Origin: Vicinamibacteria bacterium
Lineage (GTDB): Bacteria > Acidobacteriota > Vicinamibacteria > Vicinamibacterales > JAENWD01
NCBI GenBank assembly: GCA_963818215.1
Contig: CAWFRL010000021.1
Location: forward strand, 340,958 to 404,957
Length of the DNA: 64,000 nucleotides
Direction: 5' to 3'
The translations under genes and the position numbers were made by a program. Positions 7,696 through 60,082 of the stretch are shown one piece after another. The notes beneath the pieces were generated by a model, which did not search any database, was not told where the DNA came from, and was given only the letters and a program-made list of their open reading frames with translations. Position 1 is the stretch's first letter, and each line of letters begins with the position of its first letter.

Positions 7696-7770
7696 GCCGG
7701 TATCGTCTAGGGGTCAGGACACGTGGTTCTCAGCCACGGGACCGGGGTTCGAATCCCCGTACCGGTACCA
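7696..7770 (+). tRNA. tRNA-Glu (anticodon CTC)
   Basis: Acceptor stem GCCGGTA/TACCGGT plus ACCA; anticodon arm CGTGG-TTCTCAG-CCACG; T-arm GGGGTTCGAATCCCC. Confidence 0.97.
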
Positions 7771-34407: not shown

Positions 34408-35503
34408 GTGAGCGCGTCGCCTGCCCAAGGCCGTCTCGGGTATCTGGACTGGCTGCGGGGCCTCACCGTGCTCGTGATGATCGAAGCGCACGCCTTCGAT
34501 GCCTGGACCTTGCCGCACGAGAAGGCGCGCGCCGCGTATGGCTGGCTGATGGTCCTGGGCGGCATGGCCGCGCCAGCCTTCCTGTTCATGGCCGGTATCG
34601 CCGTCGCGCTGGGAGCCGCTGCGCAGATGCGGCGGGGCCGCTCGCCGGTTGAGGCGGCCAGGCTCGTCGAACGTCGCGGCTGGCAGATTTTTCTCTACGC
34701 GTTTCTCTTCCGCCTCCAGTCCTACGCGCTCGGAGGGTTCTCGAACGCCGCTGGCCTGCTCAAGGTCGACATCCTGAACATCATGGGGCCGGCCATTGTC
34801 GCGGCGGCCTGCGTCTGGCGTCTGCCTGGCACCCGCTTGCGCCGTGCCCTGGTCCTGACAGCCGCCGCGGCGCTCATCTCGATGTCGACGCCTGCTATCC
34901 GCGACGCCGGATGGCTGTCGGCGTGGCCGGACCCGCTCGAGTGGTATTTCAGGCCCGACCCCGGCAAGGGCACTTTCACCCTGTTTCCGTGGGCGGGTTT
35001 CGTCCTGGCGGGAGCGGTCCTGGGGCTGGCCCTGGACGGTGGGCGTGCCTGGGCGCCCTGGCGGCTTCAGGCGGCCATCGCCGCTGCAGGCATCGCCCTC
35101 GGGGCGGCGTCCTATTGGGCTTCGTGGCAGCCTGCGCTGTTCCCGACGCGCGCGGTTCTGGACCACCTCACCGGCGTTCTTCGGCTTGCGCGTCGGGCTG
35201 CTGGTCGTTCTGGTCGCCGTGGCGTGGCTCTGGTCGGTCAGGCCATGGCCGCGACTCATCGACTCCCGACCGCTGGAGGTGCTGGGCGTCGGGTCGCTGT
35301 TTGTCTACTGGGTCCATGTCGAGCTTGTCTATGGGGGGGCCACGCTTCCCCTTCGGCGCCAGCTCACCCTCGAGCAGGCCGCGGTCGCCTGGGTGCTCTT
35401 CACCGGAGGCATGTATTTGTTATTGCTGGGGTGGAACCATCTGGGCCCTGCCCGCGCCAAATTTCGTGAATCATTTCTAAACCCGTTGCTGTCAAGGGCT
35501 TAG
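34408..35503 (+). CDS. DUF1624 / heparan-alpha-glucosaminide N-acetyltransferase-like membrane protein
   Basis: LDWLRGL.VL.MI.AH, AAPAFLF.AG, DILNIMG, FPW.GF, SLFVYW.H. Confidence 0.82.
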
Positions 35504-35570
35504 TCCAGATAAGCTCGCTTGGATAGGCCCCGAAGCCCCGTCGGTTGCACGACCCGAGGGTCATGCCCGG

Positions 35571-35599
35571 TTGAGATCGGCTGAAGGCGTCGATACAAT
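35571..35599 (+). promoter_or_regulatory. Sigma70 promoter of the DGQHR gene
   Basis: TTGAGA-N17-TACAAT. Confidence 0.55.
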
Positions 35600-35644
35600 C
35601 CCGGTCTTTTGAGGCCAAAAGGCGCACCAGGAACCCAGAGAGCC

Positions 35645-36778
35645 ATGATCAACGTCGCGGCCATTCGGATGCAGCAGTTCGGGGTCCAGTTCTATCAGGC
35701 CTCGCTGACGGCCAAGGATATCGACAAGCTCGTCCGCTTCGAGGTCCTCAGTTACGCGGATCAGGCTCACCCGCCGGTCAGAGGCGGACGTCGAGGGGCC
35801 GGGCCCAAGATCAACTGGGATCTGCTCGAACAGCGCATCGCGTCGAGCGACCGCGCGTACCAGCGCCACATCATCCGCCGGAAGATCGACGAGCTGGTGC
35901 AGTACTACGAGCAGTGCCGGCAGGCGCGAGATCTGCCGTCGATCCCTGGCGCGGTCATCATCTCGTGCGACGAGAAGCTGAAGTTCGAGCCGGCGCAGGA
36001 TGGCGCTTCGGTGGGCACGCTGAAGGTGCCCGAACGCGAAGGCATCCTGCGCGCGATCGACGGCCAGCACCGCCTGCTGGCGTTGCACGCCGCGCTCGAG
36101 CAGATCGGCGGAGAGTCGTTCACGGTGCCGGCCATCATCTTCGACCAGCTGCCCGAGGATCACATCGTGCAGATGTTCGTGACGATCAACGCCAAGCACA
36201 CGCGGCTCAATGCCTCGCACCTGGTGTCGCTCTCGGGCCGCCAGCTCTATCGCGACGACAACCTGGCCGCCGCGCACGACATCGTCCGTGCGTTGAGCGA
36301 TCGAGAAGACTCGCCGCTCTACCAGCAGATCAAGCTGCTTGGCGTGGGCAAGGGCAAGGTCGCGCAGGCGCCGTTGGCCCAGGAACTCAAGAAGCTGTTC
36401 TCGGCCGACGCGTTTGGCACCGGTCGGAAGGCCGACGAGTTCCGCGAGGACTCGAAGAAGTTCTTCGTGAACTACCTCAAGCAGGTGGCGCAGGTGTTCG
36501 GCGCGGCCTGGAACGGCCGCAAGTACAGCATCCGCAGCGCGCCGGCTCTGCGCGCGTTCATTCGCGTGGCGCCCGATGTGATTCGCCGGCTCGACCAGGA
36601 GCGCGCGGACCGCTCGGACTATCGCGCCATCGGCCGCGTCATCGCGCCGTGGGGTCGACGAATCGGCGATCTGCGCTTCGAGACCGAGGGCGCATGGAAG
36701 CGCAATGGCTCGTCAGTGGAGCAGTTGGCAAAAGAGCTGCGGCTAGCCCTGCAGTATCCCGAAGGCGCTGGGCTCTAG
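35645..36778 (+). CDS. DGQHR-domain protein (DndB/ParB-like superfamily)
   Basis: YQR...RKIDEL..Y, PGAVII, AIDGQHRL, MFVTINAK; intact ORF. Confidence 0.9.
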   Translation: MINVAAIRMQQFGVQFYQASLTAKDIDKLVRFEVLSYADQAHPPVRGGRRGAGPKINWDLLEQRIASSDRAYQRHIIRRKIDELVQYYEQCRQARDLPSIPGAVIISCDEKLKFEPAQDGASVGTLKVPEREGILRAIDGQHRLLALHAALEQIGGESFTVPAIIFDQLPEDHIVQMFVTINAKHTRLNASHLVSLSGRQLYRDDNLAAAHDIVRALSDREDSPLYQQIKLLGVGKGKVAQAPLAQELKKLFSADAFGTGRKADEFREDSKKFFVNYLKQVAQVFGAAWNGRKYSIRSAPALRAFIRVAPDVIRRLDQERADRSDYRAIGRVIAPWGRRIGDLRFETEGAWKRNGSSVEQLAKELRLALQYPEGAGL

Positions 36779-36877
36779 TGTGTAGATTTCGAATGTAAGT
36801 TCGACACGAGTGTAAGACCGCGAACAGTCCTGCGACGCACAACCGCAATGTGCGTGTGATTTCTCAGCAGTCGGACG

Positions 36878-36893
36878 CGGCACGCTCCTTGCT
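36878..36893 (+). promoter_or_regulatory. Sigma54 promoter with upstream TGT-N10-ACA-type element (36811-36826)
   Basis: CGGCACGCTCCTTGCT, GG at 36879-80 and GC at 36891-92; predicted +1 about 36904. Confidence 0.75.
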
Positions 36894-36903
36894 AAATAGG
36901 AGG

Positions 36904-37006
36904 GCGTCAGCGGTCCGATATTACGGCAAGGGCGCCGTGATTGTGCTGGGGAGCCGGGCCGCCGGCAAAAGGGCATCGCGTGTTAACGCGGTGCCCTTTT
37001 CTTTTT
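36904..37006 (+). ncRNA. Putative sigma54-dependent structured small RNA (about 100 nt)
   Basis: Starts at the predicted +1; closing stem GTCAGCGGTCCG/CGGGCCGCCGGC encloses hairpins ACGGC-AAGGGC-GCCGT and GCT-GGGG-AGC; ends in an intrinsic terminator; no ORF. Confidence 0.6.
36967..37006 (+). terminator. Rho-independent terminator
   Basis: AAAAGGGCATCGCGT-GTTA-ACGCGGTGCCCTTTT followed by CTTTTT. Confidence 0.9.
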
Positions 37007-37043
37007 GCGGTCAGACTTCTGCTCCGGGCGGGGCGACTTCTTC

Positions 37044-37856
37044 GTGCACATCGATCTGAACGCCGATGTCGGTGAGGCCACCAACCCGCTCGAAGAACTG
37101 GTCGAGCTGGCACTGCTCGATCTCGTCTCGTCGGCCAACGTCGCGTGTGGCGTTCATGCGGGCGACCGCGGCGCGATGCGACGGCTGGTCTCGGTTGCGG
37201 CGGCCCACGGGCTCAACATCGGCGCGCACCCGGGCTATCCCGATCCCGAGCATCGCGGTCGCCGCGCGCTCGACCTGCCGCCCGAAGAAGTGCGACAGCT
37301 CGTCCGGGACCAGGTCGCCTCGCTTGCCGCCGTTGCCGCCGAACGCGGCGCGCGCCTCACGCACGTCAAACCACACGGCGCGCTGTACAACCAGGCGGTT
37401 TCAGACTCCACACTCGCTCATGCCATCGCGTTTGGCGTGAGAGATGTCGATCCGACGCTGCGACTGGTGGGGTTGTGCCGCTCACAGTTGCTCGAAGCGG
37501 GCATTGCCGCGGGTCTGCCGGTGTGGGGTGAAGCGTTTGTCGACCGCGCCTACCGACCCGACGGATCGCTGGTGCCGCGCAACCAGGCAGGAGCCGTCCA
37601 CACTGATCCCGGTCTGGCCGTGACGCAGGCGCTCACGCTGCTGCTCACCGGCTTCGTGCGCGCCATCGACGGGGTCACGCGCGTCCCGGTGCAGCCCGAC
37701 ACGCTCTGCATCCACGCCGATACTCCCGGTGCCGTGGTGCTGGCCCGGCGGCTGCGCAGTGCGCTCACGGAAAAAGGCATCGGCGTTGGCAGCGGCGTCG
37801 TCTCCCGTCGGCGCCGCGGCGCCGTGTCCGCGCAACCGCTGACGCGCAACCCCTAA
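37044..37856 (+). CDS. pxpA: 5-oxoprolinase subunit A (LamB/YcsF)
   Basis: IDLNADVGE, SANVACG.HAGD, GAHPGYPD, HVKPHGALYN, E.F.DRAY, TLCIH.DTPGA. Confidence 0.92.
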   Translation: MHIDLNADVGEATNPLEELVELALLDLVSSANVACGVHAGDRGAMRRLVSVAAAHGLNIGAHPGYPDPEHRGRRALDLPPEEVRQLVRDQVASLAAVAAERGARLTHVKPHGALYNQAVSDSTLAHAIAFGVRDVDPTLRLVGLCRSQLLEAGIAAGLPVWGEAFVDRAYRPDGSLVPRNQAGAVHTDPGLAVTQALTLLLTGFVRAIDGVTRVPVQPDTLCIHADTPGAVVLARRLRSALTEKGIGVGSGVVSRRRRGAVSAQPLTRNP

Positions 37857-37874
37857 CCCACCAGTCGCACCGCA

Positions 37875-39086
37875 GTGTTCTGGACAGAGGCGACCCCACA
37901 GGCGCGACGAGCCCTTCTGGCGGCCGCGGCGGGCTGGATGCTCGACGCGATGGACGTGCTGCTGTACGCGTTTGTCCTCGACCACGTGCGCGCGGAGTTC
38001 GGCATCGACGATCGCATGAGCGGCCTGCTGCTGGCGCTGCCGCTGCTGGCCTCGGCCGTTGGCGGCGTGTTCTTCGGCTGGGTCGCAGACAGGCTCGGCC
38101 GCACGCGCGCGCTGATGGCGTCCATCCTTGTCTATTCGGTGGCCACCGCGGCCTGCGGCCTGGTCAGCAGCGTCTGGCAGTTGGCGGCTGCGCGCCTGCT
38201 GGTCGGCGTGGGGATGGGCGGCGAGTGGGCAACCGGTGCGGCCCTGGTCGCAGAGACATGGCCGGCGCAGCACCGCGGCAAGGCGCTTGGTCTGATGCAA
38301 AGCGCCTGGGCGGTGGGCTACGCGGCGGCCGCCGGGCTCAATGCCGTCGTGCTGCCCGCGTTTGGCTGGCGTGCGGTTTTCCTGGCCGGCCTGCTGCCCG
38401 CGATTGTCACGTTGTGGATTCGCCGATCCGTCGAAGAGTCGCCGTTGTGGCTGGACGGTGCCCGAAAGGCGGAGCCCTCGGCGCTCTCTGATGTCCTCAC
38501 CGGTCGTGGCGCGCGGCTGACGTGGACGATCGTCGCGATGAACGCCGCGACGATGTTTGCGTGGTGGGGACTGTTTTCGTGGATCCCGTCGTTTCTCGCG
38601 CGGCCGGTCGACCAGGGCGGGGCCGGCTTGTCGCTGTTGCGCTCGTCCACGTGGATCGTGCTGATGCAGGTCGGCATGTGGCTCGGCTACGTCAGCTTCG
38701 GCTTCATCGCCGACCGCGTGGGACGCAAGCGCGCCTACGTGACGTACCTCATTGCCGCGGCCTGCCTGGTTCCCATCTACGCGACCTCGCGGCATCCCGC
38801 GGTGCTGCTGGCGCTGGGGCCGGTGGTGGCCTTCTTCGGGACGGGCTATTTCAGCGGGTTTGGCGCGGTGACGGCAGAGATCTTCCCCACGCGGATCCGT
38901 GCGACGGCTCAAGGCCTGACCTACAACCTCGGACGAGGCATCAGCGCTGCGGCGCCGTTCACCGTCGGCGCGCTGGCGGCGGTCTACGGTCTCGGGGCGG
39001 CGCTGCTCGTGACGAGTCTCGCGTTCCTCGTGGCGGCCACGCTGTGGATCTGGATCCCTGAAACGCGCGGGCGCGCGCTCTCCTGA
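37875..39086 (+). CDS. MFS transporter
   Basis: G..ADRLGR, GMGGEW, ETWP...RG, EIFPT.IRAT; 12 TM helices. Confidence 0.92.
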   Translation: MFWTEATPQARRALLAAAAGWMLDAMDVLLYAFVLDHVRAEFGIDDRMSGLLLALPLLASAVGGVFFGWVADRLGRTRALMASILVYSVATAACGLVSSVWQLAAARLLVGVGMGGEWATGAALVAETWPAQHRGKALGLMQSAWAVGYAAAAGLNAVVLPAFGWRAVFLAGLLPAIVTLWIRRSVEESPLWLDGARKAEPSALSDVLTGRGARLTWTIVAMNAATMFAWWGLFSWIPSFLARPVDQGGAGLSLLRSSTWIVLMQVGMWLGYVSFGFIADRVGRKRAYVTYLIAAACLVPIYATSRHPAVLLALGPVVAFFGTGYFSGFGAVTAEIFPTRIRATAQGLTYNLGRGISAAAPFTVGALAAVYGLGAALLVTSLAFLVAATLWIWIPETRGRALS

Positions 39087-39112
39087 TGGCCGAGCGAGCG
39101 CGCCGCGATGCG

Positions 39113-41349
39113 TCAGTCCTGCGATCTCTCGGTCTCTGTGGCTGATCGCTTCCCGCGTCCGCGCTGATACAGGAACGACACGGCGAGCAGCACCAGGCCT
39201 ACGCCGATGAAGCCAAGAATTCGATAGATCCCGCCAAGCGACGACAAGTCCACCAGGAACACCTTCAGCACGGTCAAGCCAAACAGCGCCATCGCCAGAT
39301 ATCGCAGCGGCGCGAAATCGCGCACGAGGCCGACGCCGATGAACGCTGACGCCAGCACGGTCCAGATCACCGACAGCGCCAGGCTCGAGGCAAACCGCGC
39401 GTCAGCCGACTGATAGCCTTTGAGGGACCAATACGCGTCGTTGTGCGCCGAGCAGGCGACGACCACCAGCACGCTGGCGACGACGACCGCAAGCGTTGTG
39501 CCCGACAGCGCGCGCTCCGCGTCCGCCCCCTCGATTCGGCGCCAGTACCACGCGACCGCGTAAAGCAGCCCGGCCAGGACCAACCCCATCACGAAGGCCT
39601 CGTGAGCGATGGGATGGAATACAGCCGGCGTTTCCGGTAACGAGAGCGCCAGGTATCGCACGACGGCCCAGGCGAGCAGTCCGCTGCCGCCCACGCGGAA
39701 CCACCGCTCGCGCATCAGCAGGCCGATAGCCACCACCAGCGCGCCTTCGACCCCAATCCCCACCGTCAGCCACGGGCCGTCAAACTGCACGGCCAGGGCC
39801 ACGGTGACGGCGCCAAGGGCGACCGCGAACGCGTTGAGCCCCGCGCGCCGGTCCTGATGCCAGAGCCGCCACGCCATTGCGCCATGCGCGGCAGCGATTG
39901 CCAGGCACAAGGTCGGCGCGCTCGCCAGCCAGACGTCCTCGACCGCCGCGTACATCGACGCGAGCAGTGCGTACCCGTTGGCGTGCTGCAACACGTTGTC
40001 GCCGCGGTCCAACACGCGTTGCTGGCGGAACACCCGGTCGAGTTGCGCCAGCGCATGCAGCGCAAAGACGGCAATCGCCGTCACGACGTTGGCCGTCAAC
40101 CACCGCGACGTCTGGTGCGAGTCGACCCAGGCCATCAACGGCAGCGCAACCGCAATCCAGGCGGCCCAGCGCCATGCGGTCGAATCGGCCCGCACCGCAA
40201 GGCCTACCGAGACCATCGCCACGGCGATCAGGTAGACCCAGACGGCCACGCCGTGGGGTTCGAGGATGCCGAGCGAGGTCACGTGGTAGAGCAGCGGTCC
40301 GGTCGCCAGGACGATCGACGAGAGGTGGCGCCAGCCGTGCCGCGCGAGTTGGGCGCGCAGGATCAGCAGGAACAGCACGCAGAAGAGCGTCAGGAAGAGC
40401 TCCGTGCGCAGCCACTTGGCGGGCGCCGAGTACTCGATCATCCAGGCGGCAATCGTGAAGACCGTGAAGCAGTAACTCAGCGCGTTCAGGCTGGGCCAGC
40501 CCTGCCGGTTCGCCAGATAGAGCGTGCCGACGACAAGCAGCGCGTCGTAGCTGAACAGCGTCAGCTGCGCGTCCTCGACCGCCCCCGACGAGAAACGGCG
40601 TCGCAAATCCGCCGCCGACGGCCATCAGCGCCAGGCCAAGCGCCCGCTGCCGGTCGGCCAGCGCGGCGGCACCCCCCGTCAGCATCACGAGCAGCGCAAA
40701 GGTCGTCGTGCGTCCGATCAGGTCGTAGAAGCTGAACGCCGCATAGATCGCCAGAAACAGCACGGCGAGGCCGCCGCCGGTGACGATCTGGCCGTACGCG
40801 CTGTAGCCGCGCTGGCTGAATCGCTGGCCGGCACCGATCAGCACGGCGCCGGCCACCACGCCCAGCGCCACGCGCATCGATTCGGTAATCCACTCGTTGT
40901 CGAATGCGTACTTCAGGAAAAAGGCGACGCCCAGCACCAGCACGATCGCGCCGACCCACAACATCAACCGCCCGCCGATCGCGTCCTCGAGCGACGTGGA
41001 CTCGTCGTCTCGTGCTGCGGCCGGACCAGCCGGCTCGCCGACGACACCTGGCGAAGGTAGTGGCGGCGTCACGACCGGCGGCGCCGGGTCGGACACGTGG
41101 CGGCACGATTGGCGGCGCGATTGGCGGCGTGACAATCGGCGGCGCGGCGGCACGTTCCGGTGCGGCTCCGAGCCTCGAGGCCTCCGCCGACTCCAGGGCG
41201 GCCAGCCTGGCCTGCACGTCGGCGAGCTCGCGCTTGACCCGGGACACTCGCATCCACGAGACAACCGGCAGAATCAGCCAGAGCCCCGCGGCAACCAGGA
41301 GACTGCCAAAGCCGATCAGGATGAGGAGCACTTCGTCTCCCGGGTTCAT
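39113..41349 (-). CDS. DUF2339 predicted membrane protein (frameshifted)
   Basis: LEDAIGGR...GVAFFLKYAF.N.WI; GGFATP; C-terminal KVFLVDLSSL..IYRILGF. Confidence 0.88.
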
Positions 41350-58703: not shown

Positions 58704-60082
58704 TTATTCCCCGTTTTGCCGTGTGCCGTTTCGAGACGCTCGTGGGGGCTCGAGCTCGTATTCTTCGATCTTCCGGTAGAGGGTGCCGCGACTGATGTCG
58801 AGCACGCGGGCCGCCTCCTTCTTGTTCCAGCCCACCGACTCGAGCACGCGCAGGACGTGCCCACGCTCGGCCTCTCGCAGCGACGGCAACCTGTCGCTCG
58901 GCGCCGCTGGGGGTCACGGCAGAAGCGTGCAGGAACTCGATGTCGCTGGCGCGGATGACCGTTCCCGGCGACGACAGCGCCGCGCGCGACACCGTGCTTT
59001 CGAGCTCGCGGATGTTGCCCGGCCACGGATAGGCGACCAGCTGGTCCGCCGCGTCCTTGCCGAAGCTCTTGGCGTCCAGCGGCAGGCCGTTGGTCGCACA
59101 GTAGCGCGCGAGAAAGCGTTGCGCAAGCACCGGAATGTCGGCCGGGCGTTCCCGCAGCGAAGGCAGCCGGATGGCAAACGCGTTGACCCGGTAGTAAGAG
59201 GTCCTCGCGGAATCGCCCGTCGCGGACAAACAGATCCAGCGGCCGGTTGGTGGCCGAGATCAGGCGGAAATCCACCGAGATCGAGCGGTTGCCGCCCAGA
59301 CGCTCGAACCGGCGTTCTTCGAGCACCCGCAGCAGTTTGGCCTGGGCGACGATGGACAGGTCGCCGATCTCGTCGAGGAAGAGCGTGCCGTCATTGGCCA
59401 GTTCGAGGCGGCCTGGCTTGCGATCGTGCGCGCCGGTGAAGGCGCCCTTTTCGTAGCCGAAGATCTCGGACTCAAACAGCGTGTCTGGCAGCGCCGCGCA
59501 GTTGACCGCCTGGAATTTCGCCTCGGATCGCCGGGACAGGTCGTGAATCATCCGTGCGACCAGTTCCTTGCCCGACCCGGTGGGGCCCAGAATCAGCACG
59601 GAGATGTCGGACTTGGCGGCCGTCCGAATCCACTCGAAGACAATCAGCATCTTCTCGTCGCGGCCGATCATCTCGCGGAAGCGCTGAACCGCCGGGGACT
59701 GGTCCTCGGTGGAGACGGTGGCGCGGCGTTCGAGGAATGCCTCGACCAGCGGGGCAATCGGTCCGCCCTGCCGGTGGAACTGATACCGGACGGGATCGCC
59801 CGACAGGCGCCGGATGACGCCGAAATCGACGAGCTCGCGGACGCAGTTGGCGACGTCGAGCCGCAGGCGTCCGAAGGCGGCCATCAGGGCCTCGAGGTCG
59901 GGGGTGTCGTCGGGCCGCGCCGCCAGGAACCTCAGCAATCCCGCCCGAAGCGGGGACTGCACGAGGGTCTTGAACCGGCCCTCGAGGTCGGAAGGCGAAT
60001 CGGGCTGGACGGCGGGCTGCACGATCAGGGTTATCGGATCGTGTCCAGTAACGGGACAGTTGGATTGCAATGCAATCGTCAA
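58704..60082 (-). CDS. Sigma54-dependent enhancer-binding protein (AAA+ and Fis HTH), no receiver domain
   Basis: GPTGSGKE, ESEIFGYEKGAFTGA, LFLDEIG, FREDL, WPGNIREL, NKKEAARVLDISRGTLYRKI; start uncertain. Confidence 0.92.

Follow-up and report, generated by a model that had tools for sequence, protein, structure and literature searches.

A conserved structured small RNA with a predicted sigma-54 promoter beside a solo DGQHR gene in the order Vicinamibacterales

What is encoded in the short gap that separates a solo DGQHR-domain gene from pxpA in the genome of a Vicinamibacteria bacterium? The window analysed here, i.e., the whole stretch of DNA to which unprefixed coordinates refer, comprises 64,000 nt of the forward strand of contig CAWFRL010000021.1 (positions 340,958-404,957) of the assembly GCA_963818215.1, and the gap occupies positions 36779-37043 of it (265 nt). 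The initial annotation, made from the sequence alone, described a gap of about 265 nt without an open reading frame (ORF), which would encode a small RNA (sRNA) transcribed with the participation of sigma-54. The size of the gap was given correctly, but the gap is not free of mechanically called ORFs (e.g., 36850-37059 on the plus strand, 69 aa, and 36743-36976 on the minus strand, 77 aa), even though nothing argues for coding. The element in the gap is most probably an independent small-RNA gene, and its family lies outside Rfam 15. We consider it very probable that it is a real structured RNA gene driven by sigma-54. What is new is the RNA family and its gene partnership; sigma-54-dependent small RNAs as a kind are already known.

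The predicted fold of the region 36900-37010 has an energy of -57.9 kcal/mol (z = -4.17), and none of 200 shuffled sequences was as stable. It consists of the stem P1 (36906-36917 paired with 36955-36966), which encloses the hairpin P2 (36920-36927 paired with 36934-36941, loop AAGGGC) and the short hairpin P3 (GCU/AGC, loop GGGG, 36945-36954), and of the stem of an intrinsic terminator (36967-37000) followed by CTTTTT. A three-way-junction fold closed by a strong terminator had been proposed for this locus, and the comparison with relatives, in which the stems are kept with compensatory changes, agrees with it. In an alignment of 20 sequences, the core ATATTACGGCAAGGGCGCCGTGATTGTGCTGGGGAGCCG was nearly invariant, and compensatory changes were seen both in P1 and in the terminator. 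The sequence GCUGGGGAGCC (36945-36955, P3 with its loop L3) is an 11-mer invariant in the whole family, and can serve as its signature.

The structure was tested in the alignment A3, which holds 94 matches (88 distinct sequences). Standard pairs were formed in 95.7% of the cells of paired columns, as compared with 38.8-45.7% when the partners were slid by 1-3 columns. Changes on both sides were found in 20 of the 33 pairs, and none of 500 shuffles reached any of the measures. P1 (8 pairs) and P2 (7 pairs) were 100% paired, and each of the 12 pairs of the terminator stem showed two-sided changes within the family. The stem of P2 was fully changed in those copies that had diverged most (ACGGC/GCCGU, GUGGC/GCCAC, GAUGC/GCAUC) and its loop was not conserved, but GCUGG(G)GGAGCC was unchanged. 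No Rfam 15 family, including Qrr, CrcZ, GlmY, 6S, SRP, tmRNA and riboswitches, matched the gap at gathering thresholds, as had been presumed for SRP, 6S, tmRNA and known riboswitches from the look of the fold. The best sub-threshold scores were those of ctRNA_p42d (23.5 bits vs. a threshold of 50), BjrC68 (22.9 vs. 39) and narK (RF03032; 21.3 vs. 43.2), and the alignment with narK covered promoter letters only. Our search of open-access literature retrieved no report of this RNA, of small RNAs of Vicinamibacteria, or of a pair of a DGQHR gene and an sRNA.

How far does this RNA extend among relatives of the bacterium? When 40 related genomes were searched by BLAST with the gap, the region that begins with the -24 box and ends with the terminator was recovered from 12 of the 13 genomes of the same genus, from four of the five genomes of other genera of the family and from four of the 22 genomes of other families. 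Beyond close relatives, there was little conservation upstream of the -24 box. The covariance model R1, built from the sequences found by BLAST, detected the RNA in 86 of 151 Vicinamibacterales genomes, bearing out the proposal of a new sRNA family. The model R2, run on a phylum-wide sample, recovered it in five of ten genomes of the same order, not in the one other genome of the same class, and as a single weak match (38 bits) in the 139 remaining Acidobacteriota genomes. The RNA family is thus confined to the order Vicinamibacterales in the genomes searched. Some genomes contain two or three copies of the RNA, including tandem pairs. In G035:C365:14468-14906 and G097:C1:940497-940928 (loci L151/L155 and L179), tandem copies about 240 nt apart have a sigma-54 promoter each, and both genomes are without the DGQHR gene; three dispersed matches each were seen in the genomes G023, G068 and G143. 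Two of the genomes with the RNA are complete in one contig, namely G097, with copies at C1:940497-940593 and C1:940832-940928, and G075, with a copy at C1:836579-836675. The source genome of the window is a 4.46-Mb assembly of 35 contigs that is 59% complete, so counts in it are lower bounds; the BLAST search of this assembly with 36860-37010 found no paralogue of the RNA (other hits had E >= 0.09).

The promoter assigned to the RNA was conserved as well. The exact -24/-12 element noted in the initial annotation is CGGCACGCTCCTTGCT at 36878-36893, and GGCACGNNNNTTGCW occurs only once on the two strands of the 64-kb window, compared with 0.10 occurrences expected. In 86 of 90 distinct regions upstream of the RNA, we found GG[CT]A[CT]-N5-[TC]TGC, mostly 26 nt before the start of the model, and the remaining four have TTGA at -12. 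The sequence between the -12 box and the RNA varies, but its length is constant. We also found the element in 19 of 21 copies that were additional or diverged, among them second and third ones elsewhere in a genome and those in genomes without the DGQHR gene. For comparison, the frequency of the pattern over the loci was about 0.09 per kb on both strands, RNA promoters included.

Farther upstream, TGTA motifs and the palindrome TGT-N10-ACA at 36811-36826 are in place as first described. In the window as a whole, TGT-N10-ACA is found at the frequency expected by chance (5 matches vs. 5.05). Among 89 upstream regions, though, the zone 40-120 nt upstream of the -24 GG contains TGTRA in 82 (shuffle mean 6.8; control zone 5), TGT-N10-AC[AG] in 61 (shuffle mean 2.1), and the strict TGT-N10-ACA in 34 (shuffle mean 0.9). 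By this comparison with relatives, TGTRA / TGT-N10-AC[AG] is a conserved candidate upstream site of an activator.

Which activator could act at this site? The source genome encodes rpoN, more than 20 Sigma54_activat domains, and hfq (G000:C1:83431-83619). A total of 158 sites in it fit a loose form of the promoter pattern, and three of them, besides that of the sRNA, have TGTRA-type motifs upstream, one of the three in a tandem repeat. The pilM-(pilN)-pilO-(pilP)-secretin operon (G000:C10:72000-73600, minus strand; locus L210) has a sigma-54-type promoter, TGGCACTGGCTTTGCC, preceded by TGTAATCGACTGACAC...TGTGATCG, which resembles the upstream site of the sRNA. In other families, a sigma-54 promoter of pilM was seen in three of five genomes, and the similarity of the upstream motifs was ambiguous. 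Moreover, an operon of a histidine kinase and a REC-AAA+ activator (G000:C13:175168-178110, minus strand; loci L060 and L180) has its own sigma-54 promoter and two TGTAAT-type motifs. This promoter and both motifs, at about -110 and about -90, are kept in 12 of 13 loci of the genus of the window, and orthologues of the activator are present in 35 of 40 relatives at 73-97% identity. The Pfam search of the 90 C-terminal residues of the activator detected no HTH_8 domain. This pair, PilS/PilR-like and seemingly self-regulating, is a reasonable candidate for the activator of the RNA, no more. If it were the activator, the RNA would be tied to the control of the type IV pilus. Another sigma-54 activator gene (Sigma54_activat, 212 bits) is in the window itself, at 59195-59671 on the minus strand (G000:C21:400152-400628), about 22 kb downstream of the RNA.

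Sixty-six of the 69 genomes with both the RNA and the DGQHR gene have them within 5 kb of each other: in 55, the RNA follows the 3' end of DGQHR at a distance of up to 500 nt (same strand in 38, convergent in 17), and in 11 more at a distance of up to 5 kb. One of the two genomes in which they were on different contigs became an adjacent case with the model R2. In 75 of 80 DGQHR loci from public metagenome-assembled genomes, the RNA was found at 35 bits or more, and one more locus has a weak match; among the DGQHR loci missed by R1, the search with filters off gave only one believable match (genome G037, 30.2 bits, convergent at the gene end). The order in 63 of 74 loci is (MFS< pxpA< M20<) sRNA> DGQHR<, i.e., the RNA and DGQHR converge, the peptidase, pxpA and MFS genes diverge from the RNA, and the RNA terminator abuts the DGQHR stop codon. 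In the other 11 loci, including the window, the order is DGQHR> sRNA> pxpA>. No divergent sigma-54 promoter that could serve the M20 and pxpA genes was found in 92 loci. As the RNA is convergent with DGQHR in 63 of the 74 loci, and no sigma-54 promoter faces the divergent genes, gene order predicts that the RNA is a transcription unit of its own. The RNA has undergone at least one inversion in place, but is still found between the 3' end of DGQHR and the 5' end of pxpA or M20. The conservation among relatives, which the initial annotation had named as a check, extends to the promoter, the upstream site, the stems and the terminator, and, as far as gene order is concerned, the link to DGQHR is real.

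Does this linkage mean that the RNA and the DGQHR protein form a functional module, in which the RNA would be a bound partner of the protein (a ribonucleoprotein), a decoy, or a product controlled by the protein? The adjacency outlasted the inversion of the RNA and changes of outer neighbours, and both genes are specific to the order in the samples searched. The protein itself is unusually well conserved, about as much as a housekeeping gene. It is present in 106 of 151 genomes of the order as a single copy with 71-99% identity, as compared with 47-63% identity of PxpA encoded in the same loci outside the closest relatives, and its homologues outside the order are 31-35% identical, except one at 52% (genome G179). 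It matches Pfam DndB (6.8e-18) and the NCBIfam model TIGR03187 DGQHR (139 bits vs. a cut-off of 58.85), but falls short of the equivalog models of DpdB (56 vs. 300 bits) and DndB (25 vs. 328 bits). No partner genes of dnd or dpd type are nearby, the neighbours encoding a peptidase, an acyltransferase, PxpA and an MFS transporter. The sequence search of PDB gave only a chance-level hit (E = 0.087), ESM Atlas led to DndB-family clusters only, and PADLOC to weak DpdB and DndB hits. Such conservation throughout an order is not what one expects of proteins associated so far with defence by DNA modification, and it suggests a core cellular role of the solo DGQHR protein.

On the other hand, the two genes do not depend on each other. 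In the family f18, the RNA is present in 10 of 11 genomes and the DGQHR protein in two of 11, whereas in the family f3 the protein is present in 11 of 12 genomes and the RNA in none of the 12; in nine f3 loci, nothing scored above 17.6 bits within about 2.5 kb of DGQHR with filters off. Moreover, the loop sequence of P2 does not track the presence of the protein, and shared descent together with a shared two-way terminator could hold the pair together. Proteins of the DndB family are DNA-binding proteins or NTPases, and we know of no RNA-binding member. Of the module suggested in the initial annotation, the gene-order link is thus well founded and the co-dependence is not, and we regard a functional module as unlikely. 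Slightly less likely still is its more specific form, in which the RNA and the order-specific DGQHR protein (ParB/DndB fold) would be one unit, with the RNA as the bound partner or the regulatory output, made when the sigma-54 activator fires. If that were true, it would be the first RNA-linked role of a DGQHR protein outside defence.

In another explanation, the element would serve mainly as a leader (attenuator or riboswitch) that acts in cis on pxpA and the MFS gene, and transcription from the sigma-54 promoter would stop at the terminator unless a signal permitted read-through. Both in the family of the window and in the genus g20 of f18, where it is sometimes in tandem, the RNA immediately precedes pxpA and has the same direction. 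The spacing between the RNA and pxpA is 38 nt in the window, counted from the terminator tail to the pxpA start, about 10-15 nt in the loci L022-L024, and about 50 nt in the genome G075. The promoter scan of 35000-39500 found no sigma-70-like promoter between the terminator and pxpA, nor any other promoter for this gene (the sole site, 35571-35599, is upstream of DGQHR), and one RNA-library contig with 99.5% identity to the window extends over 36933-37138, past the terminator and into pxpA. The pxpA-MFS pair recurs beside the RNA in relatives, and the 4-kb flanks include pxpA in 56 of 74 loci. However, only in 11 of the 74 loci is pxpA downstream of the RNA on the same strand; in 42 it is divergent, upstream of the RNA promoter. 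Additionally, no anti-terminator appeared in the minimum-free-energy or the centroid fold, and inspection by eye alone suggested one pairing with the 3' half of the terminator and none that would compete with its 5' half. Some genomes also have extra copies of the RNA elsewhere. As in 63 of 74 loci the terminator is directed towards the end of DGQHR and has no gene behind it, the leader explanation, which the initial annotation held as its alternative, fails for the family, and we find it improbable as the main function. In the lineage of the window it may survive as a secondary role. Given the 38-nt spacing, the lack of a nearer sigma-70-like site and the bridging contig, pxpA and the MFS gene are most simply transcribed by read-through there, and the chances that the terminator also acts as their attenuator seem to us even.

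Two further explanations are highly improbable. Open frames of 44-77 aa, such as the 69-aa frame 36850-37059, span the gap as if it encoded a small protein, but the indels that distinguish relatives in the loops and the linker have lengths of 1-7 nt and do not keep to multiples of three, the conserved block shows no variation at any codon position, i.e., it is conserved at the nucleotide level, the candidate frames continue through the terminator, and the base-paired architecture is the same in either orientation of the RNA. That the gap holds only a terminator of the DGQHR mRNA, with the promoter match and the fold arising by chance, would suit a hairpin that comes after the DGQHR gene or abuts its stop codon, and the chance-level frequency of TGT-N10-ACA in the window, but it is contradicted by the structure test, by the core of about 60 nt before the terminator, which is more conserved than the flanking proteins and carries compensatory changes, and by the promoter, whose distance from the RNA is constant and which is retained even in copies remote from any DGQHR gene.

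The explanation that we prefer for the element as a whole, and consider probable, is a trans-acting RNA of about 100 nt that depends on sigma-54 and an activator. According to it, sigma-54 RNA polymerase would bind the -24/-12 element at 36879-36892 and be activated by an enhancer-binding protein on the TGTAA-type site, which precedes the -24 GG by about 65-95 nt. Transcription would proceed from about 36904 to the intrinsic terminator at about 37006, giving a three-way-junction RNA. This RNA would act in trans, with the invariant GCUGGGGAGCC at the junction as a surface recognised by a C-rich RNA, possibly with the participation of Hfq, or by a protein. In the family of the window and the genus g20, the terminator might double as an attenuator of pxpA-MFS. 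A role as a trans-acting regulator of any kind is, in our opinion, likewise probable. For base pairing as the way of action, we would put the chances a little below even, and for protein binding markedly lower. Base pairing is slightly favoured because the terminator has a U tail, the genome contains hfq, and the family tends to occur in multiple copies. The U-tailed intrinsic terminator and the hfq gene are features of Hfq-associated sRNAs, although the tails are weak in the genus g20. A protein-sequestering RNA of the CsrB/RsmY type was considered and rejected: its mark is repeated GGA motifs in loops together with CsrA, and here the loops read AAGGGC and GGGG, the P2 loop is not conserved across the family, and CsrA was not found in the source genome (59% complete).

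Is the RNA made, and does it have visible targets? The RNA sequence is present in RNA libraries. At least 10 runs of soil metatranscriptomes, which belong to several studies, contained 33-43% of the words sampled from the gap, about the share of the gap taken by the RNA. In the four runs examined at the level of contigs, parts of the stretch were without cover; one RNA-library contig came from a relative with the convergent arrangement. Several observations, however, tell against a discrete trans-acting transcript with the structure proposed above. The metatranscriptome data are assembled contigs with a depth of 2-5, the libraries may contain DNA, and such data cannot show transcript ends or strand. 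The contig X8 (96% alike) corresponds to 36885-37034, starting 19 nt before the predicted +1 and ending 28 nt past the T tail, and, as it exceeds both predicted ends, it does not fit a discrete primary transcript. The exact complement of GCUGGGGAGCC occurs nine times in the source genome, one of these being the antisense of the RNA itself, compared with 14 occurrences expected from base composition, and shuffled 11-mers had 0-55 genomic matches. Conserved complementary 7-mers in the neighbouring genes were not concentrated at any position (no 100-nt bin was shared by more than 8 of 57 loci). As to the structure, P3 never varies, so its pairing is without support from covariation, and the alignment used for covariation was fitted to the model and consists of related sequences, both of which inflate the controls.

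A separate observation concerns complements of the invariant 11-mer. Two of the nine exact matches lie in a near-identical duplicated segment of about 650 nt of the source genome (C5:3100-4100 and C33:1400-2150; loci L233 and L234), which precedes a GDSL-like gene and reaches into it. The complement is located some 100 nt ahead of the ATG, and no Rfam family matched the segment. This complement may be due to chance or to a duplicate in the assembly.

The features of the locus are collected in Table 1. The start of pxpA is most likely, as judged from its alignment with relatives, which begin with MRIDLNAD there, the GTG codon at the position given in the table; it is in frame with the TTG at 37005 that was listed originally. 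An A-run precedes the terminator of the RNA, and for this reason the terminator could also be usable for the opposite strand. The inverted repeat between the upstream site and the promoter has seven pairs and a poor T tail in the terminator scan, and was not conserved in the alignment of upstream regions beyond close relatives; it may be a weak terminator of DGQHR or a protein site. Elsewhere in the window, two long overlapping ORFs at 39113-41264 on the minus strand both match DUF2339, one its N-terminal and the other its C-terminal part, and may represent a single gene of a membrane protein, interrupted by a frameshift or by an error of assembly. In the whole window, Rfam gave one match that reached its gathering threshold, a tRNA gene at 7696-7767 on the plus strand.

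Table 1. Features of the DGQHR-pxpA locus, in window coordinates.
Feature	Position	Strand	Basis or remark
DGQHR-domain (DndB-family) gene, 377 aa	35645..36778	+	likely ATG start at 35645; Pfam and NCBIfam matches
Candidate upstream activator site: TGTAGA at 36781; TGTAAGTTCGACA at 36794-36806; TGTAAGACCGCGAACA (TGT-N10-ACA) at 36811-36826	36781..36826	+	
Inverted repeat ACGCACA-N7-TGTGCGT between upstream site and promoter	36835..36855	+	terminator scan
Sigma-54-type promoter CGGCACGctccTTGCT	36878..36893	+	GG at 36879-80, GC at 36891-92; predicted +1 at about 36904
Small RNA, about 103 nt: P1, P2, P3/L3, terminator	36904..37006	+	predicted fold, covariation
Intrinsic terminator: 15-bp stem, loop GTTA, tail CTTTTT	36967..37006	+	fold and terminator scan
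pxpA (LamB/YcsF, 5-oxoprolinase subunit A)	37044..37856	+	Pfam 9.6e-82; NCBIfam PxpA subfamily 276.8 bits
MFS transporter gene, co-directional behind pxpA	37875..39086	+	Pfam MFS_1 1.7e-44

Vicinamibacterales (Acidobacteria subdivision 6) belong to the most abundant bacteria of soils and are known almost only from metagenome-assembled genomes, and we found no description of a regulatory RNA of this order in open-access text. The RNA described here occurs in most of the order, and, with its promoter, activator site, structure and terminator predicted, it provides a handle on sigma-54 signalling there. Its tight linkage to the highly conserved solo DGQHR gene, independent of orientation, suggests a housekeeping or regulatory role of this protein family. 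Additionally, the covariance model is suitable for submission as a new RNA family.

How does the RNA compare with systems that are already known? The Rfam models that came closest, BjrC68 (RF02353) and ctRNA_p42d (RF00489), share with it a GC-rich terminator hairpin and a U tail, below the threshold, and the model of narK RNA starts with letters that resemble a sigma-54 promoter and were aligned to GGCAC...TTGCT. Only the terminator or the promoter aligns in these cases, and not the junction core. Acido-1 (RF01686) and Acido-Lenti-1 (RF01687) are non-coding RNA motifs reported from Acidobacteria (PMC2864571). Neither matched the RNA at E up to 10.

Leader-derived sRNAs are terminated transcripts of riboswitches or leaders that also act in trans. 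The RNA of the window is similar to them in that it ends just upstream of pxpA, and in that one promoter would serve both the RNA and the pxpA-MFS mRNA. It differs from them in that no gene on the same strand follows the terminator in 63 of 74 loci, and in that no conserved pocket of the ligand-binding type was identified in it. In Salmonella, Rsr (Ro60) and Y RNAs are encoded in the sigma-54/RtcR-dependent rsr-yrlBA-rtcBA operon (PMC9879122). They resemble the present case as a small structured RNA beside a conserved protein gene with the participation of sigma-54, which is predicted here. They differ from it in that our RNA has a DGQHR/DndB-family neighbour and not Ro60/TROVE, and has its own promoter, often on the opposite strand; there was also no Rfam Y RNA match in the gap.

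The closest parallels are the sigma-54-dependent sRNAs with dedicated activators, such as Qrr1-5 with LuxO in Vibrio, CrcZ/CrcY with CbrB in Pseudomonas and Azotobacter, GlmY with GlrR in enterobacteria, NrsZ with NtrC, and Pxr in Myxococcus. The known genes of this kind are often beside the gene of their own activator, and the sites reported for activators include TGT-N10-ACA for NifA and TGTC-N10-GACA for GlrR. CrcZ/CrcY are the subject of PMC6292655. Unlike in the Qrr, CrcZ and GlmY class, none of whose Rfam families matched even at E up to 10, the neighbour of the Vicinamibacterales RNA is the DGQHR gene and not an activator gene, and its conserved motif (GCUGGGGAGCC) is G-rich, and neither an anti-Shine-Dalgarno sequence nor an A-rich Hfq/Crc site. 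Nevertheless, like the members of this class, it is predicted to be a short non-coding transcript with a -24/-12 promoter, a conserved upstream site and its own terminator; like Qrr, it is present in multiple copies in some genomes; and, as in the case of NifA and GlrR, a palindromic site of the TGT...ACA type is located at the RNA gene.

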